Notes under the pieces: generated by a model | Database searches by the model: none | The model's input: only the letters and a program-made list of their open reading frames with translations | Told to the model about the DNA's origin: nothing | Shown here: positions 5,308-35,274 of the stretch, piece by piece | How positions within the stretch are numbered: the first letter of the stretch is position 1 | Layout of the letters: every line of letters starts with the position of its first letter | Source: Parachlamydiales bacterium | GTDB taxonomy: Bacteria; Chlamydiota; Chlamydiia; Chlamydiales; CALOCV01 | NCBI GenBank assembly: GCA_942491955.1 | Contig: CALOCV010000030.1 | Span: 8,473-72,472 of the forward strand | DNA length: 64,000 nucleotides | Direction: 5' to 3' | Translations under genes and position numbers: made by a program

Positions 5308-5384
5308 TTATTTTCTAAAAACTCGTTCAAAACTGTTTTACGAATAAAACGACAAAAGCAAGGATGACCATATGTAAACTGGTT

Positions 5385-5590
5385 TTTCAAACATATGAAA
5401 TGCCACAAATTACATCATATAAGTCGACCGCTCTAGGACGTGTTTTTTTTCTTGCAGATTCCAGAAGAGGTTTAATTTTGTTAAACTGTTCACGATCCAT
5501 ATCGCTAGGATAGCAATGGGGCATAAAATACCTACAATTGTCTTGGAAAATAATTGTTTATACAGGATTAGAAAGATTTTAAACAGGTTC
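5385..5590 (-). mobile_element. Truncated second, divergent IS5-family copy (right end and transposase N-terminus only)
   Basis: 5561-5590 repeats the IS end (tacaggattagaaagattttaaacaggttc). 5400-5525 encodes MPHCYPSDMDREQFNKIKPLLESARKKTRPRAVDLYDV.., which is homologous but not identical to the 4599..4940 product. Confidence 0.7.
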
Positions 5591-5668
5591 TTAGAACATC
5601 CTTATTGGGGTGCATGGGTAGCAGGTGAAGAACACGCTTATGACAAGGAGTGGATCCAGAGTTCTTGA
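5591..5668 (+). pseudogene. Immunity-like paralog copy 5, 3' part
   Basis: Reads LEHPYWGAWVAGEE.. directly after the IS end. Joining 4129 to 5591 and removing one TTA restores ...PHILEHP... Confidence 0.75.
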
Positions 5669-6067
5669 GATATCGCGATACAAAGAGGAGACGTAGAGCA
5701 CTAAAAAGCGTGGGAAGAGAGGGATGTGAGGTATATAGCGAATAGGATTCAAAATCGGGATTTTGCATGGATCCTTATCTATGCAATCTTTTGTTTGACC
5801 TCTACAGGATATCCCAGTTCTTCCAAAACTTTTTCATTGATTTTTGTGCACGAAGTTTATGTGGGTTTGTATTGAATCCTATTGAGGGTTTAAAAGAAAG
5901 CGGCCTGCGCTCTTGTTAAAAAAATAAAAAAAATATTGCTATGCTATAATGATAAGAGAGGGGTGTGCTTCTGCTTATCTTATATCGCTTTTTTTCGATA
6001 AATGCCCCCTTTTCTTGAAATAAGCAGGGGCAATCATTTATTAAGTATTTAACTAAGAGGGATTTTT

Positions 6068-10010: not shown

Positions 10011-10026
10011 TGTAAGGAGAAACAGT

Positions 10027-11358: not shown

Positions 11359-11382
11359 TTTTATGGAGAAAAGGAGGGGAAA

Positions 11383-11955
11383 ATGAAAAGTGGAAAAGGA
11401 GCCAAGACGCAAATGAAAAAAGCTGCGCTCGACATCGCCCAAGAAAATGCGGAAGAACTTGGTGGACAGCTCAGCCAAGTGATAGACAAAGTCCTAAAAG
11501 GAGGGATGCTTGTCAAAGACGCTATGGGCTTAAACGAGACCGTTGTCGAAGGGATCTACGCACAAGCATATCGCCTCTATAACACAGGAAAATACATCGA
11601 AGCCAGCCACCTTTTTCGAATGCTTATTGCCATCAACCCAACAGAAGCCAAATACACCCTTGGTCTAGCCGCTTGTTTTCACATGTTAAAAGAGTACCGC
11701 AATGCCGTGCAGGCCTATACGATTTGTGGATTGATCGATCCCGAAAACCCCGTCCCTCACTACCACGCTTCCGATTGCTATATCCAGCTCAAAGACATCT
11801 TATCAGCAATTGTCGCCCTCGAGATCACCATCAAGCGTTCAGGAGAGAAAAAAGAGTACACCACAATCAAAGACCGCGCTCGGATGACTCTTGAAGGCTT
11901 AAAAAAAGAGTTTAAAGAAAATCCTCCCCCTCCACCACAAAAAGAGGGTGAGTAA
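11383..11955 (+). CDS. T3SS class II (translocator) chaperone, TPR, LcrH/SycD/Scc family
   Basis: TPR pattern YRLYNTGKYIEASHLFRMLIAINPTEAKYTLGLAACFHMLKEYRNAVQAYTICGLIDPENPVPHYHASDCYIQL. Strong RBS (aaggagggg). Lies directly upstream of a hydrophobic translocator-like gene. Confidence 0.7.
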   Translation: MKSGKGAKTQMKKAALDIAQENAEELGGQLSQVIDKVLKGGMLVKDAMGLNETVVEGIYAQAYRLYNTGKYIEASHLFRMLIAINPTEAKYTLGLAACFHMLKEYRNAVQAYTICGLIDPENPVPHYHASDCYIQLKDILSAIVALEITIKRSGEKKEYTTIKDRARMTLEGLKKEFKENPPPPPQKEGE

Positions 11956-18305: not shown

Positions 18306-20519
18306 ATGGATAGGATTCCAATATATGAATGGAGACGAGATCCTTATATTGGTGGAGATGGGCACACCTATTATGAAAATAGATTTATAACTCGTTGGGC
18401 ACCTAAACCAACACCTTGTCTTAGCGAATACCGATTCGATAGTCTTCTCCAAAGCCCAGATATAGGAAAAGGAAAGACACGGCATTACGTTGTTCTTTCT
18501 CTTCCTCCACACTCACTGCTCTCTTCGATAAAACAGAAAAACGTCGATTCTCCCGTCAAAAAATGGTTCATCCAGCAAAAAGAGCAAAAACACAATGTTG
18601 AGCTCGATTGTTCTATTCAGAAGACGGATAGCGGCACCCCAATTCTCTCTTTGGGATACGATCCTCGTCCGAAAGAGATGGATGACCTCTCCCCTTCAAA
18701 AGGAAAAAATGTCTTTCTTTGTGTCCAAGTTGTTTGGAGCGCCATTACACGCAATGGCGACGGAACAATTAAGGATAGAGTGCGCTACAACCATTCTCCT
18801 GAATTTTTAGCAGATGATGAATCCTTCTACCCCGATTGCCGAACGATGCAAAAGGAAGGAATTGTCCCGGAACAATTGATGACAAATGGTTGGGATGCAT
18901 GGATGCGCATTCGTTTTTTAAAACAATATCTTTTGACACAACACGATCCCGATACACACCTTCCCCGATTGAGTGAAAAATACTCCATTACTTCTGAACC
19001 GTCTTTAGAAGATTGTTTTTGTAACTTACGCTATATTGAAACGATACGCGATGCCACCGGTGGCAGTTTCTCTCATTTTCCTATTATTCGAGAGATAGCA
19101 ATTCATTCATGGTCTAACTGCGAATTGAATATTCCTGTTGCATCCGTACTCGATAAAATCCACCACGAAGTTGGTTCGATCCGACACCGACGCATCAAAC
19201 GCAAATTAGAACCTGAAGAACCTTGGGTCTCTCAATATTTTAAACAATTTATTCACGGTTTTGTGATTGATCCTGGATTCAACTTTACATTGAATCCCTT
19301 TACTTCCTGCATCGGCTATGAACGACTCGATCTAAACTTTATTCTTTTACAGCTTGGTAATGATCGGCAATCTGTCAACAACTACCTTACCTATTTACAA
19401 TTGAAACAAAAAGACCTTCAAAACTATGGAGTCTCGCAACTAAGATTTGGCTGTTCAATCCTTGCTCCAGATATTGCCAATGCTCAAAACGAACAAGAGC
19501 AGTTCGATTTACGCAAAAAAATGCAACCTGCTTTGGTCGAAGCGCTTGAATGCATCACGATGAGTGAAAAAATCACACACGACATCGATCAAATAAAAAA
19601 AAAATTTTTAGAAAAACCATCTTTTTTGTCCTCAATAAAGCAAAAATGTGGAGACATATTAACTGATGATCCTGTTGAGATGTACCCAAGGTGCAAAAAA
19701 ATCATTCAGCCTCAATACGACTGGGTTTTTACAGAACAAAGCATTCCTCTTACGGGTGAAGAAATCATTGAATTGCCTGAATCCGATCGTGATCCCGAGC
19801 TGCCAAAGACCCTTCTTCGCATGGAAGAATTGGAAAATTTGATTCGAGCAAAATGTCGCTTAGGATCCGATGCGTTTCATATTGAACAATATGAAAAGGT
19901 GTTTGGTGACATCCAAACAAAAATTCAATCTCTTGACACCACATGGAAAATGTTGAAAGAGAAGATCCCTTCCGAAGAAGGTAAAGAGCCATTTCTCGAA
20001 CTGATAGAACAATGGACATTATGGAAACAGGAATACTCTTTTTATCAAGGTATGTTTGCTGCTGATATCAATAAGACTCTATTGACTCCTCTTACTGAGA
20101 GATTAGAGCAACACTTGAAAGCACTTAAACCGATTAAGGATTCTTCTTCACTTCCTTTTTATCAAAAATGGATGCAGAACAGTCTTTCTCAATATCGAGA
20201 AAACATCAAAAAAATCCAAGAATTGCAAAACAAGTGGCAAAGCAACCTAGAAAAGGTAAGGAGTCAATTTCTTCAAATTTCTTCTCAAGAACAGATCAAT
20301 GAATTCGATATGACTGTTGAACAAAAGAAAAAGACCTTTGATGTGTCCATTCCCCCAGTCGATGTAAACAGCCGCATCACGGCTTCTCAACTTGTAAATA
20401 ACAGTAAAAAAGATTTTGAAAAAAAAGGAATTCTTGAAATCTACAGAAAAATAGACCCATGGGCCGATGAAAAAAAGAAAGATCCAGCTTGGCTTCAGGT
20501 AGAAAACGTGTCTACGTAG
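18306..20519 (+). CDS. Large hypothetical protein (737 aa) with possible N-terminal U-box-like motif
   Basis: ORF with aggag upstream. The N-terminus RDPYIGGDGHTYYENRFITRW resembles the U-box core DPV....GHTY.R..I..W. Confidence 0.55.
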   Translation: MDRIPIYEWRRDPYIGGDGHTYYENRFITRWAPKPTPCLSEYRFDSLLQSPDIGKGKTRHYVVLSLPPHSLLSSIKQKNVDSPVKKWFIQQKEQKHNVELDCSIQKTDSGTPILSLGYDPRPKEMDDLSPSKGKNVFLCVQVVWSAITRNGDGTIKDRVRYNHSPEFLADDESFYPDCRTMQKEGIVPEQLMTNGWDAWMRIRFLKQYLLTQHDPDTHLPRLSEKYSITSEPSLEDCFCNLRYIETIRDATGGSFSHFPIIREIAIHSWSNCELNIPVASVLDKIHHEVGSIRHRRIKRKLEPEEPWVSQYFKQFIHGFVIDPGFNFTLNPFTSCIGYERLDLNFILLQLGNDRQSVNNYLTYLQLKQKDLQNYGVSQLRFGCSILAPDIANAQNEQEQFDLRKKMQPALVEALECITMSEKITHDIDQIKKKFLEKPSFLSSIKQKCGDILTDDPVEMYPRCKKIIQPQYDWVFTEQSIPLTGEEIIELPESDRDPELPKTLLRMEELENLIRAKCRLGSDAFHIEQYEKVFGDIQTKIQSLDTTWKMLKEKIPSEEGKEPFLELIEQWTLWKQEYSFYQGMFAADINKTLLTPLTERLEQHLKALKPIKDSSSLPFYQKWMQNSLSQYRENIKKIQELQNKWQSNLEKVRSQFLQISSQEQINEFDMTVEQKKKTFDVSIPPVDVNSRITASQLVNNSKKDFEKKGILEIYRKIDPWADEKKKDPAWLQVENVST

Positions 20520-20885
20520 TCATTTAACGAGTATTATCTTAAAAATACCTCACCTTAAAAGAGAATTAAATTCCACATTATCTTGCTGATTTGTTATACT
20601 AACTTTCGCAAAAGGAACTATTATTTCATTTATTCCGCATCACTCCCCGCTCTTTTGAAATTGATTTTTTGTTGTTACAAAACAGTTCTCTTTCTCGCTA
20701 CATCTAAGCAATGCGTTTTCCATTTTGTAAAATGATTGTTTTATTTTTAAAATAATTTGCATTTATTTATACAGCCTTCTATCCTTTAACGCTTTTAAAC
20801 CCAATGAGAGGAATTTTATTCCCTTATCATTGTTAACTAGAAGCTAAGTATTTTTTTATAATTATCATACACCAGGTCTCAATCT

Positions 20886-22067
20886 ATGAATTCTCTCTCT
20901 CCTATCGGTAATCACCATCTAAGCCCTCAATTGCCCGTATTAGTTCAATATGGACAGGATTGGGATAAGTTAAATCCTTGGAAGGAAAATAATTTACCGG
21001 GATATATGGCGATCGGTCATAACAACACAGTGGATAAGTGGGATGATAAAAAGTTGGAAAGAATACACACCTTTTCGGAAGGAACAAAAATTCTTTCAGG
21101 AGTGCGAGCAGGTAATGATCCCTGGATCGTTTATTTCCTTGTTCAAGAAGAAAATGGCTTAAGTATTCATGAATTTAAAAGCTCTATCTATCTAAGACAA
21201 ATCACTCAATTAGAAATTCCTTCAGAAACACAATCGGTATGCCTTATTCCAGACTACAAATGGAGTTTGAAATACGGCACATATGCCGTTTGGTTTGCTG
21301 CGATTAAAACCACTGAAATCTATGCAAAATTCATTACCGAGGGTGAACGCAAATGTGAAGATCAACACATTCCTCTTGAACGACCACTCCTAATGATTCT
21401 AAATCAATATCCCAACGATCTCATTCTCATTTCAAAAGAGGGACATCTAGACCGTTGCTCTCTCCACGAAGGGACGATAACACCACTATCATCGGATGCT
21501 CTAGGACCCATGAAAATGGGGACACAGGAATTCCCAGGATTAGCAAAAGAGTACGGCATGTCTGTTAAAGAAGATGGCACATTGCTCTATTGTAACACTT
21601 ATGACAAGAAAAAAGACCCCGTTTACCAATTGTCAACAGAGATATTATCTCTAGATTATCAAAAATACCAACAACCGACAGGCTCCTTTTCCGCCTGCTC
21701 TTTCATACCTCGCCCTATATGGATGGCTCATACCCTTTTTGTAACGACGGATCGCCGAGAAATTGCCGTATTTGGCTGTCAGCGACCAGGGACGAGTTTT
21801 TCTTTACTATTTGATCCTTTTGTTTTAAAAAAGGCTGTTGTTAAAGGACAATACGATGAGGTGCCCGTTCGAGATAGTGTGGAGTTGATCGATATTAAGT
21901 ATCTTTCCATGATAGGTCAAGGACTCGCTTTTGTCCTTGTTGGACGGGATTTACAACAAAACCAAATTCTTCTCTACCACATCTATTGTTACCATAGAAA
22001 TGGCTCTAGCGAAGAACAACGATTTAACTACATTAGAGAAATCGCTACCTACCCTTTGTCACAATAG
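20886..22067 (+). CDS. Hypothetical protein (393 aa)
   Basis: Long ORF in the AT-rich block. No motif recognised. Confidence 0.45.
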   Translation: MNSLSPIGNHHLSPQLPVLVQYGQDWDKLNPWKENNLPGYMAIGHNNTVDKWDDKKLERIHTFSEGTKILSGVRAGNDPWIVYFLVQEENGLSIHEFKSSIYLRQITQLEIPSETQSVCLIPDYKWSLKYGTYAVWFAAIKTTEIYAKFITEGERKCEDQHIPLERPLLMILNQYPNDLILISKEGHLDRCSLHEGTITPLSSDALGPMKMGTQEFPGLAKEYGMSVKEDGTLLYCNTYDKKKDPVYQLSTEILSLDYQKYQQPTGSFSACSFIPRPIWMAHTLFVTTDRREIAVFGCQRPGTSFSLLFDPFVLKKAVVKGQYDEVPVRDSVELIDIKYLSMIGQGLAFVLVGRDLQQNQILLYHIYCYHRNGSSEEQRFNYIREIATYPLSQ

Positions 22068-22070
22068 ATG

Positions 22071-23963
22071 TTAAGCAGATAAGGCCATACCTGACCATCC
22101 AAAATGCAATTGAATCTTTTTTCCCTTCTTTGCATCGACGAGGAGTTTTGCGGGCATTTTCACTTCTCCTTTCTCCCAAATTTCAGGGTGTTTAGAGAGA
22201 ACAGAGACTTGGATGCGTTGTTTGCTGCCTTGACCGTTTCTCATCGTAATGGTTGTTTTTCGGAAAAACCCTAACATGAATATTAGAACCCTTAAGAAAG
22301 CCATGCGTATTTTGTGATTTTTCGATAGCGTTCCTAGAAACACAATTTTCTTAAGCAAAAAATTATTGGGCTTCAATTGAAATAGACTCAAAGAGGTATT
22401 TAAGGGAGTTGAAGTTCCTAGGTGTTGTTGGATGGTTTCATTCGTGTAGCCTTTGTTGCGCAAGGATTTCATGGCTCCATTGAAAATCGTCTCGATCTTT
22501 TGCATGCAATTTTCTCCCGCCATTTGGAAAAGGAGGTTGTTTTTGCGAGATGCGTCTAGCATGGAATAAATGCTTGTTTGAAGGGCATTGTTTCCCTCTT
22601 TACTTAGTGGATAGACGTCAAAGCATTGGATGCGTCGGCTTTGATCGGCGATATCGGGATAGGTCATTTTTCCTTTCACGGATTTGGAGAGAAATAAAAA
22701 GGCCTCTTTTAGGTGGGCAAGATTGGGCCATTTTTTTGCGTACGCTCCAAAGGGGTAGATCTTGTATTGATTTGTTTTTGGCTGGTAGATAACCAGATCG
22801 GAAAATCCATGCCAACCTTGTAAATCGGGTTCTGTAGTCGCTCCTGAGGCTCGAACAACAAAATGGTCTTTGCCCTTTTCTACTTTTTCACCATAACGTT
22901 GTTGAAGATCTTCGAAAGAAAGAGAGTCGTAGTCGGGGAATTTTTCTAGACAATCAAAAGGAACGGGAGTTGTTGTCCCATCGGGATGGGTCCAAGCAAG
23001 GTCCTTATTATCCCAGGGAATAAATCCCTTTGCTGGAAAACACTGCCATACCTCAGTCCCCTTAGAGTGATGGTATTTAAAATCGCGGAAGAGATTTCTC
23101 ATTGTCCATCCCTCTCGGATTCCATCCATATGAATCGATGCTTCAAGATCAATTTGATGCCATTGATCGCAAATTTTCATTTCGACAACAGATCTTTTCA
23201 AAGAGGGATTGTGTTGAATGCGGAGAACCTTCTTTCCTCCTCGACCTAAAGCATCGACCATTTTGGACGAGACGAATTTATGCGTCAGCAATGCCTGCCG
23301 TACAACGAGAAATACGGGAAGATTGCGTTCAATCACATTTTCAAAGAGATAATTTGCATATTGAGGATCGGTCACTGCATAATTGACAACATCAAAATCT
23401 TGTAAAAGTTCTTGCAACTGTCTCTCTTCAATGGCATTCAAATCGGAATTCCCTAAAAAGAGTTTGTTGTTCCTTTTCCAATCGATCAATGCGTTGCGGA
23501 GTTCTATTTTATTTTGTTTTTTATCTGTGTCTGTAAGTTCCTCGGAAGGAGAGGTAACTCCATAGAATTGAAAAGAGAGGGCTTGAATTTTTTTGTTCCA
23601 TTTAGCTTCTAAACCTGCCTTTTTTATTGGTTTTAATGGGAAAGAACAAAAAAATCGGTCGCATATTTGTTTAATGCTGTTGTAAATGGTTTTCCTATTT
23701 TCATGACACATATCCTCTTGCATCGTTTTATGAAAAATTGCTTGTTTGAATGTTTTGAGAAGACGATAGTAATCTCGAGAATTGCATTGTTTTAATTCTT
23801 CTCCAATTTGTCGGCGGGAATAGGTGTTATCAATTGTAACATTCCCGGTTGTAGGATCGATTGCAATTGCTTTCGGATCTAAGAGCATCAGATCCCAGCT
23901 AAACACTCCTTCTTGATCAAACAAATTGTACGTGGTTGTTGCTGAAGAAACAGAAGCTACCAT
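22071..23963 (-). CDS. Hypothetical protein (630 aa)
   Basis: Long ORF, convergent with 20886..22067. No secure motif. Confidence 0.5.
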   Translation of the reverse strand: MVASVSSATTTYNLFDQEGVFSWDLMLLDPKAIAIDPTTGNVTIDNTYSRRQIGEELKQCNSRDYYRLLKTFKQAIFHKTMQEDMCHENRKTIYNSIKQICDRFFCSFPLKPIKKAGLEAKWNKKIQALSFQFYGVTSPSEELTDTDKKQNKIELRNALIDWKRNNKLFLGNSDLNAIEERQLQELLQDFDVVNYAVTDPQYANYLFENVIERNLPVFLVVRQALLTHKFVSSKMVDALGRGGKKVLRIQHNPSLKRSVVEMKICDQWHQIDLEASIHMDGIREGWTMRNLFRDFKYHHSKGTEVWQCFPAKGFIPWDNKDLAWTHPDGTTTPVPFDCLEKFPDYDSLSFEDLQQRYGEKVEKGKDHFVVRASGATTEPDLQGWHGFSDLVIYQPKTNQYKIYPFGAYAKKWPNLAHLKEAFLFLSKSVKGKMTYPDIADQSRRIQCFDVYPLSKEGNNALQTSIYSMLDASRKNNLLFQMAGENCMQKIETIFNGAMKSLRNKGYTNETIQQHLGTSTPLNTSLSLFQLKPNNFLLKKIVFLGTLSKNHKIRMAFLRVLIFMLGFFRKTTITMRNGQGSKQRIQVSVLSKHPEIWEKGEVKMPAKLLVDAKKGKKIQLHFGWSGMALSA

Positions 23964-24352: not shown

Positions 24353-24595
24353 AGCTACTCCTTTTTTAGCAAAGATGCTCGATCGCTGGATAGGTGAATT
24401 GTTTTTCTTAAAATGAGTAGAAATTTGTCCTTTTTTTGCAGCCATTTATGCCTCTTTGTTAAAGAAAATTAAATGAATACCACAATGACTCAAAAATGTG
24501 TTCTAATTTCATGCACTCTGGATCCATTTCTGATGTCACTTGACAAGAAAGCTAAATGAGTAACAAAATCGCCATTTCCTGATAAGGAGGATTAA

Positions 24596-24823
24596 ATGGA
24601 AAAATTAGACGTTACAGGAAAAAAAGAACTCACATCTTTAAAATTTGATTGGAAGATTTACCAATTGAATGCCGCTTCCACAAAGTGCTGTGCAGGAGGC
24701 ACTCGGGATGTGACCGGAAGACATGGAGGTAACAAAGGCACTTCGCTACATACCATTCCAATGCACCATGATGAAACAGATGCAAAAGACGTTGTATCAA
24801 CCTATGGATATTTGAGACATTAA
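24596..24823 (+). CDS. Small peptide (75 aa), candidate RiPP precursor
   Basis: Very strong SD (taaggaggattaaATG). Ends 20 nt before the LanM-like gene. Contains KELTSL, two Gly-Gly sites (CCAGG, RHGG) and many Ser/Thr. Confidence 0.55.
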   Translation: MEKLDVTGKKELTSLKFDWKIYQLNAASTKCCAGGTRDVTGRHGGNKGTSLHTIPMHHDETDAKDVVSTYGYLRH

Positions 24824-24843
24824 AAAAATTAGAAGATGCTAGA

Positions 24844-26379
24844 GTGAAATTTAGAGATTCCCTTCGGGCTCAGTATTATCTTGCAGTTTTAGAAAGGGGA
24901 ATTTCTAATGCAACTTTGCAATTTCCTCGACCGTCCATTTTTGCAAAAGATCTCTTTTCAATTCTTTGTGATTTTAGCACGGAATTATCGGAAGAACTTG
25001 ATCAGCTTTTACTCCCTACCATTGTCTATGAACTATATAAAAGCAAAAAGTTAGGTCATTTAGAGGGATTAACGCCTTTTGAACGCTATAAAAGCTTTTT
25101 TCTGAATCAACATGGTTATACTTCTCAGTCTCGCTCTCTCATAAAAACTTATCCTTACCTCTTTGAAATGGTGGATGAGGTTACAACTCGATCGTTCTTA
25201 AATCTAATTAAATGTTTGAAAAGACTTGAGGTGGATTTTGAAGAAATTAAGAGATATTTTAAACTCTCACCTAAGTGCCTTGTTGAGAAAGTCAAAATTC
25301 TTTCTTCTTCTGATAGACATCGCAATCAACAATCTCTGCTCTTATTTTTTTCTGATAATACGAGGCTGATTTACAAACCAGTTGATTTGCAACTTGATGA
25401 ACTTTTTGATCAATTTATTCAGAACCTAGACCTTCCTGATCCTTTCAATCTTGCATGTAGAAAAATTCTGCCTAAAGATAAATATGGCTGGCTTGAGTAT
25501 ATTTCTCCAGATTCTTGTAATTACTTAGAAGAAATTAGACACTTCTACAAAAGAGCAGGGGCTTTATTAGCGATCGCCGACACTCTTAACTATTCTGATG
25601 GTCATTGTGAGAATATTTTGGCTCATGGTTCTTTCCCTGTTCTTTTAGATGGAGAGACCTTGTTTCAAAATTACGCAATGCCTATTCAAGAAAGCAAAAG
25701 CATTATATCGACACAGCTCATTCAAAAATTCACCAGAAAACAGAAAAATAAAATAAACTATTCCGCCCTTCAAGCAACTGATGAAGAACGATTTGAATCC
25801 TTATTTACATATGCAATCGATGATCAAACAGATGAAATGAGGATTGCTTATAGCGGATATAGTCAAGAGATAAACCATCATCGCCCTGTATTTAAAGAAA
25901 AATTTTATAATTCATCTGAATTTTTAGAGGAAATCATTCATGGTTTTTGCTTTTGCTACGATTTAATAACAGAAAAAGCTCCTCAGTTTTTGAAACGTGC
26001 ATCTTGGTGGGATCAAGTTGCCACCGTACATTCGAGAATGGTTATAAGGGACACAAGCGCTTATTTTTATCTCCAAAGAAGGATTCAGCAACCCGAATAC
26101 TGCAAATCTAAAAAGAAAGCTGAAGCATTCGTGAGAAATAAGCTAGGCGATACTCCTTATACTGATTATGAAATTAAGGATATTTTAGAACTGAATATCC
26201 CCTATTTTTATCAAATACCTGGAGAACAACATCTTTATGACGGAAAAAACCGGTGCTACTTGCAGGTTTTTCCCAGTACTGCCGTCGATTGGATAAAAAA
26301 ACATCTCAAGGCGCGGTCTGAAAATAAAAAGCTATGTGACTGTAAACTTATTCGCAAATATCTGTCAAAAAAACACTGA
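24844..26379 (+). CDS. Stand-alone LanM-type lanthipeptide dehydratase domain (DUF4135-like), no LanC-like cyclase domain
   Basis: RLIYKPVDLQLDELF...KYGWLEYI...FYKRAGALLAIADTLNYSDGHCENILAHGSFPVLLDGETLF matches the kinase-like core of class II LanM N-terminal domains. At 511 aa it is too short to contain a cyclase. Confidence 0.7.
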   Translation: MKFRDSLRAQYYLAVLERGISNATLQFPRPSIFAKDLFSILCDFSTELSEELDQLLLPTIVYELYKSKKLGHLEGLTPFERYKSFFLNQHGYTSQSRSLIKTYPYLFEMVDEVTTRSFLNLIKCLKRLEVDFEEIKRYFKLSPKCLVEKVKILSSSDRHRNQQSLLLFFSDNTRLIYKPVDLQLDELFDQFIQNLDLPDPFNLACRKILPKDKYGWLEYISPDSCNYLEEIRHFYKRAGALLAIADTLNYSDGHCENILAHGSFPVLLDGETLFQNYAMPIQESKSIISTQLIQKFTRKQKNKINYSALQATDEERFESLFTYAIDDQTDEMRIAYSGYSQEINHHRPVFKEKFYNSSEFLEEIIHGFCFCYDLITEKAPQFLKRASWWDQVATVHSRMVIRDTSAYFYLQRRIQQPEYCKSKKKAEAFVRNKLGDTPYTDYEIKDILELNIPYFYQIPGEQHLYDGKNRCYLQVFPSTAVDWIKKHLKARSENKKLCDCKLIRKYLSKKH

Positions 26380-26397
26380 CTTTGTCCCCTGGCTGAC

Positions 26398-28232
26398 ATG
26401 AACATCAAAAATAAACTTTCTAATTTTCTCGATAAAATAAAGATCCACTTGTGGGGCACAAAACAAATCATTGTTGCTGCACCCAAAGAAACGGGAATTC
26501 TCTCTTTATTAATTGTTTTCCAGGGAATCATTCCTGCCTGCTCTCTTTTCATCGTGCAAGTGATCATTAATTGGATCCTATCTCCCGAAGTATTTTTTCC
26601 TTTAGGGTTAGTTCTAGCATGGAGTGGAATTCTCGTCTTGGGAACTGTGATCAGCCCAGTTATCTCTGTGATTCGCATCAAGCTCAATGAAAAAGCCCTC
26701 ACTCATTGCAACGTGCTGTTGATGGAAAAGGCTAATAGCATTGAGGGACTAGCTCCTTTTGAAAATCCCAAAGTTTATGATCAGATGCAATTTCTTAAAA
26801 ATGAATCTGCTCGGCGTCCTTTAAATTTCGTCTTCATTATCACAGGATTAGTTAAGGATTTCATTGCTCTATGCTCCATTCTCGTAGTCCTTTCAACCAT
26901 TAATCTTGGGATGCCTATTTTCATCCTAATTGTCTCTATTCCACATGCGATTTCCACCTATTGGTTTGAAAAGCAAACATGGATAGATATGCTTTTAGGA
27001 GCCCGGAGGCAAGACGATTAGCATGGTTGTCTTCTTTGACCTTAGATGAGCGTTATTCCAAAGAAATTCGTCTTTTTGGGTTTGGAGATTTTCTTGTAAC
27101 TCAATACAAAACTTTTGCTAAATCCTTTCATACTGCCTTTAGCACCGAGCGATGGAAGAAATCCTGCAGGTTTGTCTCTCTTTCATTGATCTCTGTTCTT
27201 GGTAACATCATCATTTTTATTTTTGCTATCATGCATGCTAAACAGGGTAATTTGACTGCAGGTGCTGTTGTTATGATATTACAAGCTTTAGTCATGGCAC
27301 AATTGGAGATCAATGGGCTTATTCAAGATTTTGGTATGCTAGCTCAAACAATGCTGTTCTTTGAAAAATTCTATCACTTCTTGAAGGCTGATTTTTGCTA
27401 CTTAATCACCAAAAAACAAGCTATTCCTACTGACCCTTTTCCCAAAAATATCATTCGCTTTGAAGGGGTTTCTTTCACTTATCCAGATGGAAGAAAGGTA
27501 CTTTCAAATATAAGTTTTTCTATCCCTATTGGAAAAAAAATTGCAGTTGTTGGAGAAAATGGAGCAGGCAAATCGACTCTTGTGAAGCTTTTAGCACGCT
27601 TCTATGATCCTACAGAGGGAAAAATCTTGATTGATGGGGTTGATTTACAAGAAATGGATTTGAAAACATGGAGACAATACTTGAGTGTGGTTTTTCAAGA
27701 CTTTGGTCAATACCACCTTAGTGCTAAAGAAAACATTGGGATAAGTCGTTCTTTTTTCGATCTCGAGGAAATTACAGAAGCTGCCAAAAAGGGAGGATTT
27801 GATTCTGTTGTCGCAAAACTTCCTGCTGGATTTGAATCCATGTTGGGAAAAGAATTTGGGGGGACTTCTCTATCTGGAGGAGAATGGCAAAAAATGGCCA
27901 TGTCACGTGCTTTTTTTCGAGATGCCAACATATTGATTTTAGACGAGCCTACGTCTAATTTGGATCCAAAAAGTGAACATGAAGTTTTTCAAAAGTTCTC
28001 AGAAAACACTGAAAACAAAACGACATTTTTCATTACCCATCGTCTGGGATCTGTGAGAATGGCGGACTGGATTCTCGTCTTGAAAAATGGAAAATTGATT
28101 GAAGAAGGAACGCATGAAGAACTTCTTTCAAAGAAAAATGGAGAATATGCTTGTCTTTTCTCACTTCAAGCCGATCGTTATACAACCAAAGAAGTAGGTA
28201 AACAACTCTCGCCTAAAGGCAAAAGCTTTTAG
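26398..28232 (+). pseudogene. ABC exporter (fused permease plus ATPase), frame broken between TM4 and TM5
   Basis: ORFs 26398..27021 (TM1-4) and 26979..28232 (TM5-6 plus NBD with GENGAGKSTL, LSGGEWQ, ILILDEPTS). The shift must lie near 26968-26985. No N-terminal C39 peptidase domain. Confidence 0.75.
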
Positions 28233-28436: not shown

Positions 28437-30266
28437 TTGGATGAAATGAGAAGAAAAATCTATTTTTTTTTCTGTTTTTTTACTAATTTTTTCCCTTTAT
28501 TAAGCCATGTCTCTCTTGTTGAAGAGAGGCAAAATGAAGAATTTTCCTATCTTTCTCATTTGGAAAGCTTTTTTCGTTGTTTATTAGAGGAAACAGAAGC
28601 GGGTTATGTCTTATTTGGAAACAAACCCATCTGCATCGATGGCATAGAAAATATCTCATTCCTTTTGCCAGGCACAGAAGTGCACAAAAATACAGTGCTT
28701 TTTCGCGAAGGTTTGCGACTATTAACGCAGCTTCCACAGAATGATCATTCTCCTATTCTTTTTCACCGTTATAGTAAACCAGATCCAGACTCTCTCATTT
28801 GGAGGAATTTTCTCATTGTCAACCAAAAAACCACAGAAGACGTGATAAAGAAAAATATCTTCTTGTTCCAACAAATTTTGGGGCCTTATGTAGATGAAAA
28901 AATAATTATGGAGAACTTGCTTAATGAAAACATCCCTTTCTCCGAGACTTTACGAGATAACAATGCTCTCACTGGCATTCTCTTGGGATATGGCACAGAA
29001 AATGCTCTTTGCGGTTCTCGACTTGAGCAGTTAACGCTACAACAAAATAATCTCCCTTTTGTGCAAAAAGATATAGCAACAAACTTGCAAGAAGGATTCT
29101 TCTACTACTTGCTTCAAATGAGTAAGGCAAATCATTTGGTTTCCCTGACACCCAGCTTAGGATTTACCTCTTTAGAAGAAGAAATGCTTTCTTTACAACA
29201 GCAACAATGCTCTTTTCCAGAAACGCTGCTTACAGAGAAACCTTATTTCATTTGTTCCGTTTTTTCACAGGATAAAGAACATAGCCAGCGGTTAGAAAAA
29301 TGGGTGGAAACACAGGAGAAAATTAGAAGTTTCTTGCAAAAAGAAGATTTTTTTCTTACGTGTATTGAAAATATATTTCATCTGGATAGGAATGAGATCA
29401 TCCATTTTCCATTCCAAGGACCAAAAACATGTCGATCTTTGAGTCATCTGATGGCCTTAGAAATATATGAATGTCTCAGTAATCACGTGAATGATCTACT
29501 ACTTGATGACGATCCACGAACTCTCTTAACAGAATGTATTCGTGGTATACAAAACGCGGATGGGAAAAGGGAAGCTATTTCTTCAAATTGGAGAGAAATT
29601 GGAAAAAAAGCTTTTCTTCAGCTCTACAAAAAAAATCTAAAAACAGCTAATGAACTATTTCGTAATCTGGAGAAAGAATCTTCTTTTACCAGTCGTAATT
29701 CTAAAAAAATTTTCTACAAAACAATACAAAAGGGGGATGGCAAACCTCTTGTTGGCAAGGAGAGTTTAGTTACGATGAGGTATGCATTCTATAAAGCAGA
29801 CGGATCTCTTTTTTCTTTTACGGATAATCCACGAACATTGACTCTTCAGAACACTCTCCCAGGACTGGCAGAAGGCATGGAAGGGATGGAAATTGGTGAA
29901 AAAAGAGTGATTTATCTTCATCCTGATCTCATCACTGGAGCCTTAGCTGATCCAGGCATTTGTCTCAAAGCAATGATAGAAGTAGAAGACGTCTGCTCTT
30001 CCCCCTCTTCTTTACATCATGCTTTTTCTCCTGTCTCCATTGAAATCTCTGGGAAAAATCTTTCTCAAACAGGTAAAGAAGTGGCTTTTTTGATTGGACA
30101 ATCTTTTTGGGAACATTATATAAAAGAAACGAGTATTTCTGCTGCAAAAATCATTGATTTCCTTCAACAAATACAAAACAATTTTGACGAAATCCCTCTC
30201 CTCACAGAAGACGAACGAGATGCTCTGAATTTGATCCATTTTTCCCTCTATTTTAAGGACAAATAA
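28437..30266 (+). CDS. Large protein with C-terminal FKBP-type peptidyl-prolyl isomerase (Mip-like) domain
   Basis: Hydrophobic N-terminus (IYFFFCFFTNFFPLL). The C-terminus GDGKPLVGKESLVTMRYAFYKADGSLF...LPGLAEGMEGMEIGEKRVIYLHPDL is an FKBP pattern. Confidence 0.6.
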   Translation: MDEMRRKIYFFFCFFTNFFPLLSHVSLVEERQNEEFSYLSHLESFFRCLLEETEAGYVLFGNKPICIDGIENISFLLPGTEVHKNTVLFREGLRLLTQLPQNDHSPILFHRYSKPDPDSLIWRNFLIVNQKTTEDVIKKNIFLFQQILGPYVDEKIIMENLLNENIPFSETLRDNNALTGILLGYGTENALCGSRLEQLTLQQNNLPFVQKDIATNLQEGFFYYLLQMSKANHLVSLTPSLGFTSLEEEMLSLQQQQCSFPETLLTEKPYFICSVFSQDKEHSQRLEKWVETQEKIRSFLQKEDFFLTCIENIFHLDRNEIIHFPFQGPKTCRSLSHLMALEIYECLSNHVNDLLLDDDPRTLLTECIRGIQNADGKREAISSNWREIGKKAFLQLYKKNLKTANELFRNLEKESSFTSRNSKKIFYKTIQKGDGKPLVGKESLVTMRYAFYKADGSLFSFTDNPRTLTLQNTLPGLAEGMEGMEIGEKRVIYLHPDLITGALADPGICLKAMIEVEDVCSSPSSLHHAFSPVSIEISGKNLSQTGKEVAFLIGQSFWEHYIKETSISAAKIIDFLQQIQNNFDEIPLLTEDERDALNLIHFSLYFKDK

Positions 30267-30312
30267 ACTGTCTGGGACTTTTGCAAAAAGGGTTGTGCCT
30301 TTGGGACAAATA

Positions 30313-30393
30313 GATGACGTTTTGGAGGAGAGACTGGACTCCCTCCAAAACTAAAACGTCATCAACATGCGCAAAATCAAGCGCATGCTTGAT
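30313..30393 (+). terminator. Two adjacent hairpins downstream of 28437..30266
   Basis: gatgacgttttggagg...cctccaaaac.aaaacgtcatc, then atcaacatgcgc-aaaatcaa-gcgcatgcttgat. Confidence 0.45.
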
Positions 30394-30564
30394 GACTGGG
30401 CGTTAATTCGATAAACAGAATAAGAAATTTGATGATGGTGGAGGTTTAAGAAGGAAGAAACAAAGAGGATCCTTGCCTTGTCAAAAAAAAAAAATTATAA
30501 ATTCATTTTTTTTTAATGACTTAGGCAATACAATCTGTTAAAATGCTCCTTTCTTGGAGTGTCT

Positions 30565-32640
30565 ATGACGATTCACACTTTTTCTACATCTCAGATCGAT
30601 CTGGAAAAATTTCAAGGATGGGGCGAACCCCTCTACTTGAAAGGAAAGCCAAACAAGCCGTTAACCGTTCCATCGGGTAAGGAATGGTACATTTCCCTCG
30701 ATCTCAAGAATCAGAAAATTTCTATCCGCACCTTCGCCGTTTGGCAACAATTCATTCGCCGATTAGGTCTGTGGTTCTGGAGTTATAGAACGAGTGCATT
30801 GCAACGCTCCTTTCGCGAACTCGGGCTGATCGATCGCAATGAATCTATCAATAGAAAAAGTAGTACTTTTCGCCAAGAGATCAATCGCATTTGGAAAGAA
30901 CAACAGCAATCCTCTTTTAAAGATCCTCTCTTTCGCACTCTCAAAAATAAGGAGACCCTAGCCTTTGTGTTTCTCAGCACTTTAGGTGGAGATCTTGCCG
31001 CTAAAAATTCTCAGGAAACAACCCTTTTCGATCTCGCCATCGAGCAGAGTGAATCATGCCTTTCCATAAAAAGGGATATTTTCCCCCTTTTTAAGACCCA
31101 TTTCTCTAAAACACACTTCTTTGAGTGTCCACCACTACTCTCTTTACAAACGAATGTTCTAAAGAATTTTTCTGCAATCCTTACACATCAACCCAATCTC
31201 TTGAAGGAGAGAATTTCCAGCCTTTCCAGGTATGATCTCCATGAATTATTTGTCTTTTTTTCTAAAAATGGAGATCCTGAATGTGAAACATGCTGTGAAA
31301 TGATGCAAACCATTGGGACACAATATACTCCAAACGACCTTATCCATGAAGAAGAGAAACTATTTTTCCAATCTTATCAAGGAACCGAAAATTTCACACT
31401 GGTAAAATTTTTTCTTAAGGGTTTCTCTCTGGATGTCGTTGTTAAACTAGCTCTATCCAATGAAAATTTGCCCCCATCACTCCTTTCTCTTTTTTCCGAA
31501 TATCTGCAGCAGATTCCGAATAAAGAAGAGGTGGTAAAAAAACTTTCTTCTAGCGAACGTAGAAAATTTTTGTCTTTTCTATTAAAAGAAGAACAATCAC
31601 TTTTCCAAGACTGGAAAGAGACGGAGAAGCTTGCATTCGTAAAATATTTTTTTGTTGATTTCTCTCTTAATGTAGTCATTCAACTAGTCTTATCCAATGA
31701 ACATTTGTCTCCATCACTCCTTTCTTTTTTTCTTGAATATCTACAACAAGTTTCTGACAAAAAAGAAGAGATAAAAAAGCTCTCTTGCCACGATTCCAGA
31801 AAATTTTTATCGGTACTCCTCCAAAAAGGTGATCCTAATGACAAGAATTGCATCGACATGGTAGGAGCTCTTGGTCCTCAGTGTAGTATTTACAGCACTT
31901 ATGACACAGAATTTCAGGACCTCTTACTTAAGCATTGTGTGACAAACAACTCTTCTTCTTTTACTCATGCGCTTTTTACAAACCTTCCCTTAAAAACTTG
32001 GATCGAGATTCTCCGACATTCTTCTTCTTCTTCTCTGTACGCCTCAGCTGTCTCTGGAATTTCCCATTTTTTGGATTCTCTAAATCAAAATCCTTCAAAG
32101 GAAGATTTTCTTAAGCAATGGCTCATCAGTGGATATAGCGAATTCTTCCTTGATACGAAAATTTTTCCAATATTTTTCCGATTGCTGAATGACCTAAAAC
32201 TCTCATTTCCTTTTGACTGGAAAGAATGCTCAGCGAAGGAATACGAAGAATGGATTAATACACAGAACGTGGAAAAACTGGCTTCTCTTCCATTTTTCCA
32301 ACTCATTGTTTTTATTACCCACTACTATTGCCAAAGTACACCTTCACCTCTTCCCAAAGAAGAAGAGGATTTTATCATGAATTTTTTTACTGGAAATTTA
32401 GACCCAAAAAAAATCCCAAAAACGTATGAGAATCGGGACAAGGTTAAAAATTGTATTAGAACGTTATTTGATTATGGAGAACAGGGTTGTTGGGTGCTTC
32501 CGGAAAGTTATCTTTGGGGCAATGGTTTAAAAATGATTCAGAAGAAATTCCCCTGTACATTTAAAAGCATTTATGACAAAAAAGAACTATCGAATAAATC
32601 CCTTTGGGACAACTTTATCCAAAAAACTTTCCAAGCTTAA
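30565..32640 (+). CDS. Large hypothetical protein (about 691 aa) with internal tandem ~75-aa repeat
   Basis: ORF 30559..32640, with ATG at 30565. FFLKGFSLDVVVKLALSNENLPPSLLSLFSEYLQQIPNKEE..KLSSSERRKFLSFLL repeats as FFVDFSLNVVIQLVLSNEHLSPSLLSFFLEYLQQVSDKKE..KLSCHDSRKFLSVLL. Confidence 0.55.
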   Translation: MTIHTFSTSQIDLEKFQGWGEPLYLKGKPNKPLTVPSGKEWYISLDLKNQKISIRTFAVWQQFIRRLGLWFWSYRTSALQRSFRELGLIDRNESINRKSSTFRQEINRIWKEQQQSSFKDPLFRTLKNKETLAFVFLSTLGGDLAAKNSQETTLFDLAIEQSESCLSIKRDIFPLFKTHFSKTHFFECPPLLSLQTNVLKNFSAILTHQPNLLKERISSLSRYDLHELFVFFSKNGDPECETCCEMMQTIGTQYTPNDLIHEEEKLFFQSYQGTENFTLVKFFLKGFSLDVVVKLALSNENLPPSLLSLFSEYLQQIPNKEEVVKKLSSSERRKFLSFLLKEEQSLFQDWKETEKLAFVKYFFVDFSLNVVIQLVLSNEHLSPSLLSFFLEYLQQVSDKKEEIKKLSCHDSRKFLSVLLQKGDPNDKNCIDMVGALGPQCSIYSTYDTEFQDLLLKHCVTNNSSSFTHALFTNLPLKTWIEILRHSSSSSLYASAVSGISHFLDSLNQNPSKEDFLKQWLISGYSEFFLDTKIFPIFFRLLNDLKLSFPFDWKECSAKEYEEWINTQNVEKLASLPFFQLIVFITHYYCQSTPSPLPKEEEDFIMNFFTGNLDPKKIPKTYENRDKVKNCIRTLFDYGEQGCWVLPESYLWGNGLKMIQKKFPCTFKSIYDKKELSNKSLWDNFIQKTFQA

Positions 32641-32909: not shown

Positions 32910-33317
32910 ATGACCGATTCTCTCTCTTTCCAAATCCAGCGCTTGCAAGAAGAGCTCGACCTCCCTCCCTTAGAAAAAACGGAAGAAGGAGGTTACCTAT
33001 GGCCTTTAGGGCCAGATTCTTCCATTCTTATTACAGAAAATGAAGAAGAATACCTGTTTTTCTCCTCTTTCGCTCCCCTTCCTAAAGAAGGAAATGAAAT
33101 TTTCTTCACAAAAATGCTAAGGGCCAATCTGTTTGGTCAAGGTACTTCTAGTGGCACCCTCGGTCTCAATGCTGAGGGGAATCGCCTTCTTCTCCAAAAA
33201 GAAGCGTCGAAAGATATTGATTATGAGTCTTTTGTAGAAATTCTCTCCGAATTCATCACCACAATCGAAGTGTGGCAAGATGAAAGCCTACAACCCTCAC
33301 AAGAACTGGAATCCTAG
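32910..33317 (+). CDS. Class I T3SS chaperone-like protein (CesT/SycE fold type; possibly Scc4-like by position)
   Basis: 135 aa and acidic. The pattern ...YLWPLGPDSSILITENEEEYLFFSSFAPLP...FFTKMLRANLFGQGTSSGTLGLNAEGNRLLL is typical of small T3SS effector chaperones. Lies directly upstream of the cdsD-like gene. Confidence 0.5.
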   Translation: MTDSLSFQIQRLQEELDLPPLEKTEEGGYLWPLGPDSSILITENEEEYLFFSSFAPLPKEGNEIFFTKMLRANLFGQGTSSGTLGLNAEGNRLLLQKEASKDIDYESFVEILSEFITTIEVWQDESLQPSQELES

Positions 33318-33507: not shown

Positions 33508-35274
33508 ATGTCGGCCCGATTGATCGCAGAACAAGGCACATTGGCAGGACTCTCCCTCCACCTCGATAAAGGGAATGAGTGGATCATTGGCCGCGATCCT
33601 GAAACCGCCTCTCTTGTGATCGAAGATCCTATGGTCTCGCGCCGTCAAGCACGCTGCTTTACCAAAGATGATGCCATTTTTATTGAAAATTTGAGTGAGA
33701 CAAATCCCACTCTGGTCAATGAAGAACCCATCAAAGAACCCCACCAACTTCGTGCAGGAGATGCCGTTCTCTTTGGTCATCAAGCGTTCCTTTTCTACCC
33801 TGAAACTACCGCTCATCTCCTCGATGAACCATCAGAAGAAAAACCCCCTTTCGAAGAAACAGCCCACGACACGATTTTTGAAGACGAAAAACTCGTCTCA
33901 GAAGATCTCCCATTTCAAAGTATTCAATTGATCGAAACAGGACGGTGGCTATTGAAAGTCATCGGAGGACCCAATAGCGGTGCGGAATTCTCGATGCAAC
34001 CAGAAAATGAATATGTCATTGGAATGGATCCAGAAGTCTGCGATATCGTCTTCCAAGATACCAGTGTTTCTCGCCAACATGCAAAAATTTTCATTGAAAA
34101 AGACCATTTGTGCTGGATCGAAGATTTGGGAAGCCGTAATGGCACTCTCATAGAAGGAAGAAAGATCACAAAAAAAGAACCCCTTCCCACTAATGCCATC
34201 CTAGCATTGGGAACCACTCTTTTTGTCGTATATGATCGTGAGGCAGAAATGCAAACCATCATCTCTCCCCTTCTTCCCTCTATAGTCAAAGTCCTGCAAG
34301 CTGAGAAAAAAGAAAAAGAAGGGAAGGGAAAAGAAAAACAACAAGAGGAGGAAACCAAACCAAAACAAACCCATATCGGCACGTTCCTTCTCATTGGAGG
34401 TCTGACTACCCTTTTTGTCATCACAAGTATCGGTGTCGTCAACCTTTTCCGCACAGCCGAAACAGTAGAGACTAAAGAAGCCGTCAATCCGAATGAACAA
34501 ATTCGAGAAGCACTAAAAGAATTTCCCAAAGTCTCCTTCAATTATAGCGATGCCACGGGCTCTGTTCTCTTAGTTGGCCACGTTCTTACAGATAACGATC
34601 GCAATCAACTCCTCTATAATTTACAAGAACTCCCATTCGTTCGAAGAATCGATGATAAAGCTCTTGTCATTGATGAATTCGTGTGGAGAGAAATCAACCA
34701 ACTTCTTGCCAACAATGAGAAATGGAAAGGAATTGCCATCCATACTCCCGCCCCCGGAAAATTTGTGATGACCGGTTATCTCAAAACAAGAAAAGATGCA
34801 GAATCCCTCTATAATTATTTGAGTATTAATTTTCCCTATCTAGAACTTCTTGATCGCAAAATCATTATCGAACAAGTCATTGTGGAAGGAATCCATCTGC
34901 AGCTGCAAAAAGCGGGTATCACCGATGTCAAAGTGGACATGAACAACGGTGATGTCACCTTCACAGGAACCATCCCTTCCGATCAAGTACCTCTCTTCAA
35001 TACAGTCGTTGACTCAACAAACAAAAAGGATGGGGTACGAACGGTACGCTCTTATGTTACAGAAGCACGTCCTCGCAAAGGAATTGCGAATATCAGCGAC
35101 GAGTATGAGGTGGGCGGACAGACAAAACTATCAGGGGGACGTATCTCTATCGTCGTTAATGGAAAATTCATTTCTGTAGGCGATGTGCTTGATGGACGAC
35201 AGGTTGTGCAGATCACTCAGAATCGCATTATCCTCGAAGATAGTGCAGGACAACTCTACCAAATTGACTATTAG
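33508..35274 (+). CDS. cdsD: T3SS inner-membrane ring protein, YscD/CdsD family, with two N-terminal FHA domains
   Basis: Two FHA signatures (IGRDPETASLVIEDPMVSRRQARC..., IGMDPEVCDIVFQDTSVSRQHAKI...GSRNGT), one TM segment (FLLIGGLTTLFVITSIGVV) and a periplasmic C-terminal domain. This architecture is characteristic of chlamydial CdsD. Confidence 0.65.
   Translation: MSARLIAEQGTLAGLSLHLDKGNEWIIGRDPETASLVIEDPMVSRRQARCFTKDDAIFIENLSETNPTLVNEEPIKEPHQLRAGDAVLFGHQAFLFYPETTAHLLDEPSEEKPPFEETAHDTIFEDEKLVSEDLPFQSIQLIETGRWLLKVIGGPNSGAEFSMQPENEYVIGMDPEVCDIVFQDTSVSRQHAKIFIEKDHLCWIEDLGSRNGTLIEGRKITKKEPLPTNAILALGTTLFVVYDREAEMQTIISPLLPSIVKVLQAEKKEKEGKGKEKQQEEETKPKQTHIGTFLLIGGLTTLFVITSIGVVNLFRTAETVETKEAVNPNEQIREALKEFPKVSFNYSDATGSVLLVGHVLTDNDRNQLLYNLQELPFVRRIDDKALVIDEFVWREINQLLANNEKWKGIAIHTPAPGKFVMTGYLKTRKDAESLYNYLSINFPYLELLDRKIIIEQVIVEGIHLQLQKAGITDVKVDMNNGDVTFTGTIPSDQVPLFNTVVDSTNKKDGVRTVRSYVTEARPRKGIANISDEYEVGGQTKLSGGRISIVVNGKFISVGDVLDGRQVVQITQNRIILEDSAGQLYQIDY

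Follow-up and report, generated by a model that had tools for sequence, protein, structure and literature searches.

The described systems that come closest to the locus analyzed here are the class II lanthipeptide synthetases (LanMs), such as LicM2 (6ST5) and CylM (5DZT), together with the LanA precursors and LanT exporters of such systems. The locus is a cassette of three genes, for a small peptide, a stand-alone LanM-type dehydratase, and an ATP-binding cassette (ABC) exporter, in a 64,000-nucleotide stretch of a Parachlamydiales genome (contig CALOCV010000030.1, positions 8,473 to 72,472; hereafter, the window). Its enzyme has a dehydratase domain homologous to that of the LanMs, with the same catalytic residues and the same fold, and, as in LanA/LanT systems, its peptide combines an ELXXBX-type leader, a documented class II signature (PMC11877530), with Ser/Thr and Cys residues in the putative modified region, next to an ABC exporter gene. 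The cassette departs from these systems in that it has no LanC-like cyclase domain or gene at the locus, no double-Gly site after the leader motif of the peptide, and no C39 peptidase on the transporter; moreover, the putative core is central, and the long tail behind it terminates in a conserved YGxLR.

A DUF4135 dehydratase without zinc-dependent cyclase activity is also known from the dehydrazoles: the LanMbC enzyme CcaM (carnazolamide) has a divergent dehydratase of this family that gives dehydro residues and no lanthionine in the product, but it requires a fused zinc-less class III-type cyclase domain for activity, depends on prior azole formation by YcaO, and is leader independent (PMC10676384). 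Because of these three properties, we regard the cassette, whose enzyme ends after the dehydratase domain and whose peptide has a leader motif, as a different kind of system; no YcaO was found among the scanned neighbors in the window flanks (where part of the open reading frames [ORFs] was scanned) and at 15 further loci (L001 to L015). The excised N-terminal dehydratase domains of CylM, HalM2, and NukM suffice for Ser/Thr dehydration in vitro, as cited in a passage of PMC10676384; these are laboratory truncations, whereas the cassette enzyme is a natural counterpart that is monophyletic and has its own dedicated precursor family. Class III, IV, and V lanthipeptide systems and thioamitide systems likewise employ ATP-dependent phosphorylation and elimination, some of them also without a canonical zinc cyclase, but their kinase and lyase folds (Pkinase/APH plus an OspF- or HopA1-like lyase) are unrelated to DUF4135. 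Lanthipeptide genome mining has been anchored on LanC-like cyclases (PMC7268733, PMC11251773), and a cyclase-less DUF4135 family would be overlooked because such pipelines start from LanC-like proteins. We found no published description of the cassette family in the searchable literature, in line with a first-pass annotation, made from the sequence of the window alone, that was aware of none in Chlamydiae. From the comparisons below, we consider it fairly probable that the locus represents a conserved, mobile module of the ribosomally synthesized and posttranslationally modified peptide (RiPP) type, with a core of precursor and stand-alone LanM dehydratase to which an ABC exporter is usually added, and in which central Ser/Thr residues would be dehydrated and captured by Cys without a dedicated cyclase.

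The enzyme matches PF13575 (DUF4135) with an E value of 2.7e-69 over profile positions 1 to 376 of 378. The NCBIfam LanM model TIGR03897 aligns with it only over positions 30 to 519 of 932, from which it follows that the protein is the dehydratase half and ends before the cyclase half, exactly where the first-pass annotation had placed its end; a Pfam scan of the 511 aa (amino acids) returned no LANC_like match and no extra domain beyond DUF4135. We mapped the catalytic residues by sequence alignment to the solved LanMs LicM2 and CylM: D157 and H159 align with CylM D252 and H254, K178 with K274, the triad D252, H254, and N257 with D347, H349, and N352, D269 with D364, and R398 and T404, the phosphate-elimination residues, with R506 and T512. 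We take these CylM residues to be the ones required for phosphorylation and phosphate elimination according to the CylM and LctM literature. The residues for both half-reactions are kept in 62 to 64 of the 64 members of the clade described below, and the elimination pair R398 and T404 is kept in 62 to 63 of them. An AlphaFold2 model of the enzyme (predicted local distance difference test score, 89.8; predicted template-modeling [pTM] score, 0.89) was matched by Foldseek to LicM2 and CylM with TM scores of 0.80 and 0.75, respectively, when normalized to the query and of 0.46 and 0.45 when normalized to the target. Since the target-normalized values are only ~0.45, the entire enzyme amounts to the dehydratase half and nothing more. 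Taken together, the alignments and the model indicate a complete and probably active dehydratase, which has a kinase-like site for ATP-dependent phosphorylation of Ser/Thr and a site at which the phosphate is eliminated.

Searched exhaustively with HMMER, 1.84 billion representatives yielded 9004 DUF4135 proteins. The best ~65 matches (50%-identity representatives, scoring from 783 to ~283 bits) are all 495 to 586 aa long and align end-to-end, and proteins of ~1,000 aa appear only below them. In a quick neighbor-joining tree, a survey of the kind that the first-pass annotation had called for, the window enzyme falls in an all-short clade of 64 proteins within the same range of lengths. Its nearest long neighbor (P0169, 911 aa) is a true LanM with a LANC_like domain, which indicates that the clade descends from an ordinary LanM that lost its cyclase. 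Identity ranges from 33 to 89% inside the clade and does not exceed 28% to canonical LanMs. Judged by these comparisons, the stand-alone clade is monophyletic, real, and old, having diversified under selection after cyclase loss, and the gene is no truncated relic. We also considered as ancestor a full-length LanM from a Chlamydiae metagenome-assembled genome (MAG) (Chlamydiae bacterium Ga0074140, locus L032; LNES01000003.1, around 6001-7353), which is canonical, 960 aa long, and carries a cyclase domain (LanC hidden Markov model [HMM] E value, 1e-111); the tree does not support this origin, since it does not place the protein as sister of the stand-alone clade. Identity between this LanM and the window enzyme is only 27%.

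By sequence, the cassette family comprises ~65 clusters, mainly from Chlamydiae and also from bdelloid rotifers. The protein search contained 49 stand-alone enzymes, of which the closest named relatives are those of the "Verrucomicrobia" MAG SZAS-4 (72% identity) and of Parachlamydiaceae bacterium HS-T3 (64%); further named sources are Parachlamydiales, Simkania, and Protochlamydia R18, and a metagenome scan added only nine stand-alone loci. In databases, the peptides are labeled "hypothetical"; the enzymes bear either the label "type 2 lantipeptide synthetase LanM" or the label "DUF4135 domain-containing protein." Family members combine an enzyme of ~500 to 560 aa, terminating behind the dehydratase domain, and an adjoining peptide of 67 to 86 aa bearing the succession ELxxLK ... 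C-x-A-[TG]-G-T ... YGxLR, and the window locus has both.

A profile search with the peptide over a collection of 5.8 billion proteins recovered 48 homologs, all unnamed or hypothetical and without a Pfam domain, which is ~1 per enzyme. The ratio of nonsynonymous to synonymous substitution rates (dN/dS) against three orthologs is 0.13 to 0.27; these values, along with the homologs, identify the ORF as a genuine gene and point to purifying selection on the peptide. A peptide homolog adjoins the enzyme gene in every stand-alone locus with enough flank (the window, L001 to L007, L011 to L015, L090 to L092, and L094 to L098), lying upstream of it in most loci and downstream in one subgroup, and the peptide HMM has no match in any of 145 canonical LanM loci. 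The window peptide is rich in Ser/Thr (13 residues) and has just two Cys, the adjacent C31 and C32, as first described. Near its N terminus is the leader motif ELxxLK(F/L)(D/N)W, represented by ELTSLK at residues 11 to 16, which AlphaFold predicts to be a short helix; E11, L12, L15, and W19 are at least 90% conserved among 45 aligned homologs, as are G71 and L73 of the C-terminal YGxLR (YGYLRH in the window), and G35 is also conserved. Where a LanA leader would end in a double-Gly (GG/GA/GS) site, the peptide has FDWK or FNW after the motif. Of the two GG dipeptides to which the first-pass annotation drew attention, both are present, but neither is conserved: most homologs have ATGT in place of AGGT, and the HGGN site varies. 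Both dipeptides are confined to the window subgroup, and for want of conservation we ruled them out as leader cleavage sites.

The family consensus of the central cluster is [ST]T[KR]CCA[TG]GT[CR], which in the window reads S29-T30-K-C31-C32-A-G-G-T36-R. The Cys positions lie at 39 to 46% of peptide length across the family, and at least one central Cys, together with a [ST]-x2-4-C pattern with the spacing of lanthionine or methyllanthionine rings as expected of a LanA core, is found in 47 of 47 peptides, as against a mean of 29 and a maximum of 38 in 500 shuffles. This excess over the shuffle maximum argues for an involvement of the thiols in the chemistry. Some 30 to 35 poorly conserved residues separate the cluster from the C-terminal YGxLR. 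The AlphaFold2 model of the peptide is mostly disordered (pTM score, 0.24), so that it would resemble a disordered precursor rather than a folded mini-protein. A role for the YGxLR tail as an export signal for the ABC protein is weakened by its retention in loci that lack the ABC gene (L096, L097, and the rotifer loci); because it persists there, the tail is more likely a second element of enzyme recognition or a part of the active product.

For the cyclase, we built a LanC-domain HMM from the C termini of 66 full-length LanMs, with which controls scored from 1e-111 to 1e-163. It found nothing in the six-frame translation of the 64-kb window (best E value, 0.54), bearing out the statement of the first-pass annotation that no LanC-like sequence is visible there. 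Across loci, the LanC domain is present in none of 25 stand-alone loci (the window and 24 others with up to 10 kb of flank) versus 138 of 145 canonical LanM loci. Nor did the scanned neighboring genes of the cassette loci include a conserved extra tailoring enzyme.

The exporter of the window has an ABC_tran match (E value, 3e-32), and its transmembrane domain (TMD) and nucleotide-binding domain (NBD) are covered by the MsbA-, HlyB-, and NHLM-ABC2-type NCBIfam models at scores far below their cutoffs; it thus has the TMD-NBD composition of a type I exporter half-transporter. Neither it nor its intact 623-aa ortholog P0059 has a Pfam ABC_membrane match, which marks the TMD as divergent. A domain scan of P0059 found ABC_tran alone and no Peptidase_C39, and scores against bacteriocin_ABC and NHLM_micro_ABC1 were far below the cutoffs; the N-terminal C39 domain of LanT- or AMS-type exporters is therefore absent, as had been noted from the broken gene. 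The break itself is real, but it is a 1-nucleotide (nt) deletion in the T run given in Table 1 rather than at 26968-26985: a single T is missing in the window (...GATATGC-TTTTAGG..., four T's), where L090 has five T's and L001 has TTTTC. With P0059 as the query, tblastn aligns aa 1 to 200 at 87% identity in frame +1 and aa 200 to 598 at 91% identity in frame +3, and since the two halves are still so similar, the lesion would be either very recent or a homopolymer sequencing error, and not a sign of progressive decay. In the window genome, export may thus have been lost, or the frameshift may be a homopolymer error of the assembly. An ABC gene adjoins the cassette in most loci; because it is missing from L096, L097, and the rotifer loci, we treat it as a frequent accessory outside the invariant core. 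At the ABC-less locus L096, a 149-aa ORF with a GNAT acetyltransferase-like motif recognized by eye (5884-6333, minus strand) lies divergently upstream of the peptide gene, whose cluster is STKCCASGTC. The mirror image of the window is seen in Parachlamydiaceae bacterium HS-T3 (L013), where the DUF4135 gene is split into fragments of 292 and 137 aa (5995-6873 and 7143-7556) and the peptide gene and the gene for a 612-aa ABC protein are intact; the fragmented enzyme gene indicates that the module is sometimes lost.

We propose the following course for the pathway. Given gaps of 20 nt between the peptide and enzyme genes and 18 nt between the enzyme and ABC genes, the three genes would be cotranscribed from a promoter just ahead of the peptide gene. 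The enzyme would recognize the peptide through the class II-type ELxxLK leader helix and, with ATP and Mg2+, phosphorylate Ser/Thr residues of the central cluster (S29, T30, and T36 in the window) and eliminate the phosphate to give dehydroalanine (Dha) or dehydrobutyrine (Dhb). This step is suggested by the LanM residues for kinase activity and elimination, which are fully conserved, and its execution by a stand-alone domain is plausible because the excised domains of CylM, HalM2, and NukM dehydrate on their own, according to the same passage of PMC10676384. One or more small thioether rings of the lanthionine or methyllanthionine type would then arise by addition of the adjacent conserved Cys residues to the dehydro residues, in a reaction that is either spontaneous or templated by the enzyme; this step is the least certain of the mechanism, and we put it forward tentatively, as one that may or may not take place. 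With neither a GG site nor a C39 domain, there would be no double-Gly leader cleavage, and the modified peptide would be exported uncleaved by the ABC half-transporter, with the YGxLR tail retained in the product or serving as a second recognition element.

Several points weigh against this bridged-peptide pathway. For a RiPP precursor the layout is atypical, with a putative core in the middle of the peptide (residues ~29 to 38 of 75), behind which come ~35 residues of low conservation and then a conserved tail. In the Simkania subgroup, the CCxTGT motif is missing and only S/T-x-x-C is retained, and in the window subgroup Arg replaces the last Cys of TGTC, which leaves T36 with only N-terminal Cys partners, an uncommon ring direction. 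Spontaneous thiol addition is slower to Dhb than to Dha, and an ABC half-transporter alone would, in a diderm cell, deliver only to the periplasm; in the window genome its gene is, in addition, frameshifted. Finally, the LanC search covered the window and the locus flanks, and a stand-alone LanC elsewhere in the genomes is possible. Part of this evidence would suit a linear product, also raised in the first-pass annotation, in which the enzyme only dehydrates or only phosphorylates and leaves an unbridged Dha/Dhb or phospho-Ser/Thr peptide with free Cys residues or a disulfide: no cyclase occurs in the 25 loci, T36 has no C-terminal Cys partner in the window subgroup, and the dehydrazoles show that a DUF4135 enzyme can give dehydro residues without lanthionine rings (PMC10676384). 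This reading is, however, weakened by the universal presence of the central Cys and the [ST]-x2-4-C spacing in the family, beyond what shuffling yields, and its phosphopeptide variant is weakened by the conservation of the elimination residues R398 and T404. At a distance of only a few residues, as here, free thiols tend to add to Dha/Dhb spontaneously. Mainly because of the Cys conservation, we favor bridging over a purely linear product, which we judge to be distinctly unlikely.

A cyclase could also be supplied in trans, with a separate LanC-like protein encoded elsewhere in the genome completing an ordinary split class II pathway. The reach of the LanC search leaves room for this, and Chlamydiae can carry LanC domains, as the 960-aa LanM of L032 attests; yet that LanM is no sister of the clade, no LanC was found in the 64 kb or in up to 10 kb of flank at 24 other loci with unrelated neighborhoods, and the module moved into rotifer genomes as a peptide-enzyme pair with no cyclase nearby, so that we hold a split system to be very unlikely. 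Still less probable, in our estimate, is a substrate other than the peptide, such as a protein of host or bacterial origin, the small ORF then being a regulator, a chaperone, or an immunity factor. Kinase-like folds are versatile, and the conserved tail and the length of the peptide are atypical of RiPP precursors, but the strict one-to-one co-occurrence and adjacency of the two genes over ~25 loci in two domains of life, rotifer genomes included, speak against this suggestion of the first-pass annotation, as do the class II leader motif and the conserved Ser/Thr-Cys cluster of the peptide. A different question is whether the cassette still functions in the window genome or is a nonfunctional, decaying remnant. 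The ABC gene is frameshifted, and the fragmented enzyme gene of HS-T3, beside an intact ABC gene, suggests that some lineages can do without the module. On the other side, the decay suspected in the first-pass annotation has as its sole basis one missing homopolymer base in a gene whose halves remain 87 to 91% identical to an intact ortholog; the peptide and enzyme genes are intact and under purifying selection, the pair exists without the ABC gene at other loci, and, with large ORFs elsewhere in the window (such as those of 1,422 and 1,252 aa) unbroken, the lesion could also be an infrequent sequencing error. We consider a remnant unlikely, while allowing it an appreciable chance.

The genes around the cassette vary from locus to locus and are often of mobile-element types (TrwB coupling protein, IS200 transposase, ParA with a pGP6-D-family gene); other varying neighbors are a sulfate permease and Tgt. 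These differing surroundings, often with mobile-element genes, suggest that the cassette moves as a unit. Adineta steineri, a bdelloid rotifer, has on two contigs (L008, 297 kb; L009, 68 kb) a gene for a 565-aa stand-alone DUF4135 protein and a small peptide gene, arranged divergently (Table 1). The rotifer peptide carries ...MTTVCCNTSTC...QYGPLA, its gene call implies an intron, and the pair sits among eukaryotic genes (PPR-DYW and a 7tm_1 G-protein-coupled receptor) with no ABC gene, an arrangement that gives the appearance of a horizontal acquisition of both genes together by an animal.

Two candidates for a recurrent fourth gene were rejected. Only in L006 and L007 does a gene of the biotin/lipoate ligase family (BPL_LplA_LipB) overlap that for the ABC protein, and only in L003 do lipoate-dependent genes lie near the cassette; a gene for an S41 protease stands next to the cassette only in L001 and L013, two close relatives. 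In L006 (7143-9760, minus strand) and L007 (1209-3826, minus strand), which belong to the peptide-downstream subgroup, the ligase is 273 aa long and the overlap is 4 nt, and in L003 (5172-13343) the cassette adjoins a cluster for a lipoyl-dependent 2-oxoacid dehydrogenase with lipoyl synthase; this association may be fortuitous, or the subgroup may have an additional tailoring step. The Peptidase_S41 genes are at 13471-14766 in L001, where the protein is 617 aa long, CPAF-like, and has a PDZ_4 domain, and at 4587-5498 (minus strand) in L013; they could reflect mere synteny or be candidates for a processing protease acting on a peptide with a conserved C terminus. In L004/L005 (3071-4697 and 9760-13418), the cassette is on a 123-kb contig labeled as an Obscuribacterales MAG, ~5 kb from ParA-like and PF03677 (UPF0137) genes. 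PF03677 is the chlamydial plasmid pGP6-D family, and the contig may be plasmid-like or misbinned chlamydial DNA; the 72%-identical enzyme ortholog is likewise labeled "Verrucomicrobia bacterium SZAS-4."

The ORFs of the cassette lie exactly where the first-pass annotation had placed them, and its overall description holds: the cluster is RiPP-like, its LanM dehydratase domain stands alone without a cyclase, and its ABC exporter has no peptidase domain. Its view that the peptide has one of the strongest Shine-Dalgarno sites in the window stands as to strength but not as to distinction, since the AAGGAGG heptamer occurs 19 times in the 64 kb. Promoter-like sites in the region are no more numerous than expected by chance, so that for the site ahead of the peptide gene it is the position that speaks. 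Gene spacing, the strong Shine-Dalgarno site, and the well-placed promoter-like site are together consistent with an operon-like organization.

Table 1. Features of the cassette and its surroundings in the window, and of the rotifer counterparts on contigs L008 and L009
Feature	Coordinates	Strand	Description or evidence
Promoter-like site TTGACA-18 nt-CAAAAT	24540..24569	+	~27 nt upstream of the peptide start codon; consensus scan, 10/12 matches
Shine-Dalgarno sequence AAGGAGG	24584..24590	+	5 nt ahead of the peptide ATG
Precursor peptide gene	24596..24823	+	75 aa; 48 homologs, dN/dS 0.13-0.27, peptide HMM linkage to enzyme
Stand-alone LanM-type dehydratase gene	24844..26379	+	DUF4135, 511 aa, GTG start, no cyclase domain
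ABC half-transporter gene, split in two ORFs	26398..28232	+	Type I exporter TMD and NBD, no C39 peptidase domain
ABC gene, 5' ORF	26398-27021	+	207 aa
ABC gene, 3' ORF	26979-28232	+	417 aa; overlaps the 5' ORF in another frame
ABC frameshift site	26993..26996	+	T4 run; DNA alignment with L090 and L001, protein-level frame switch
TPR_3 class II type III secretion chaperone	11383-11955		Chlamydial marker
CesT chaperone	32910-33317		Chlamydial marker
CdsD-specific type III secretion domains	33508-35274		Chlamydial marker
Rotifer peptide and enzyme genes, L008	8818-9108 / 10001-11698	- / +	Divergent pair
Rotifer peptide and enzyme genes, L009	3324-3614 / 4507-6204	- / +	Divergent pair

The wider window has the chlamydia-like character first ascribed to it, with the CdsD-specific type III secretion domains, the CesT and TPR_3 chaperones, and homologs from sources named Parachlamydiales, Simkania, and Protochlamydia. 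Around the TPR_3 chaperone, the segment 6068-17946 has a G+C content of 0.45 to 0.50, versus ~0.37 to 0.40 in its flanks, a strongly positive AT skew, and a same-strand run of ORFs (831, 428, 456, 612, 446 aa, and others) without Pfam matches; it is possibly a translocator/effector operon. The cassette itself is flanked (18306-23963 and 28437-32640) by large ORFs without family assignment (737, 393, 630, and 693 aa) and by a 609-aa ORF with only a weak C-terminal FKBP_C match. The translation of the 693-aa ORF (30559-32640) contains an internal duplication of ~75 aa (…FSLDVVVKLALSNENLPPSLLSLFSEYLQQ… / …FSLNVVIQLVLSNEHLSPSLLSFFLEYLQQ…) that is undetectable as a DNA repeat.

The cassette may, as a tentative proposal that we hold with somewhat less than even confidence, represent a new RiPP subclass: a minimal two-gene module with a central Thr/Cys core and a conserved follower tail, giving thioether-bridged or dehydro peptides without a cyclase, which would have spread among obligate intracellular Chlamydiota and been acquired horizontally, as a pair, by bdelloid rotifers. 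It provides a natural test case for the formation of a defined bridged or dehydro product by a LanM dehydratase on its own, along with a new precursor family of unusual leader-core-follower layout. Candidate RiPP pathways are rare in obligate intracellular bacteria, and the cassette is one of them; its peptide could be directed at competitors or at the host. The family also presents an apparent transfer of a substrate-enzyme pair from bacteria to an animal; if the proposal is true, the rotifer copies would constitute an animal-encoded lanthipeptide-like pathway.

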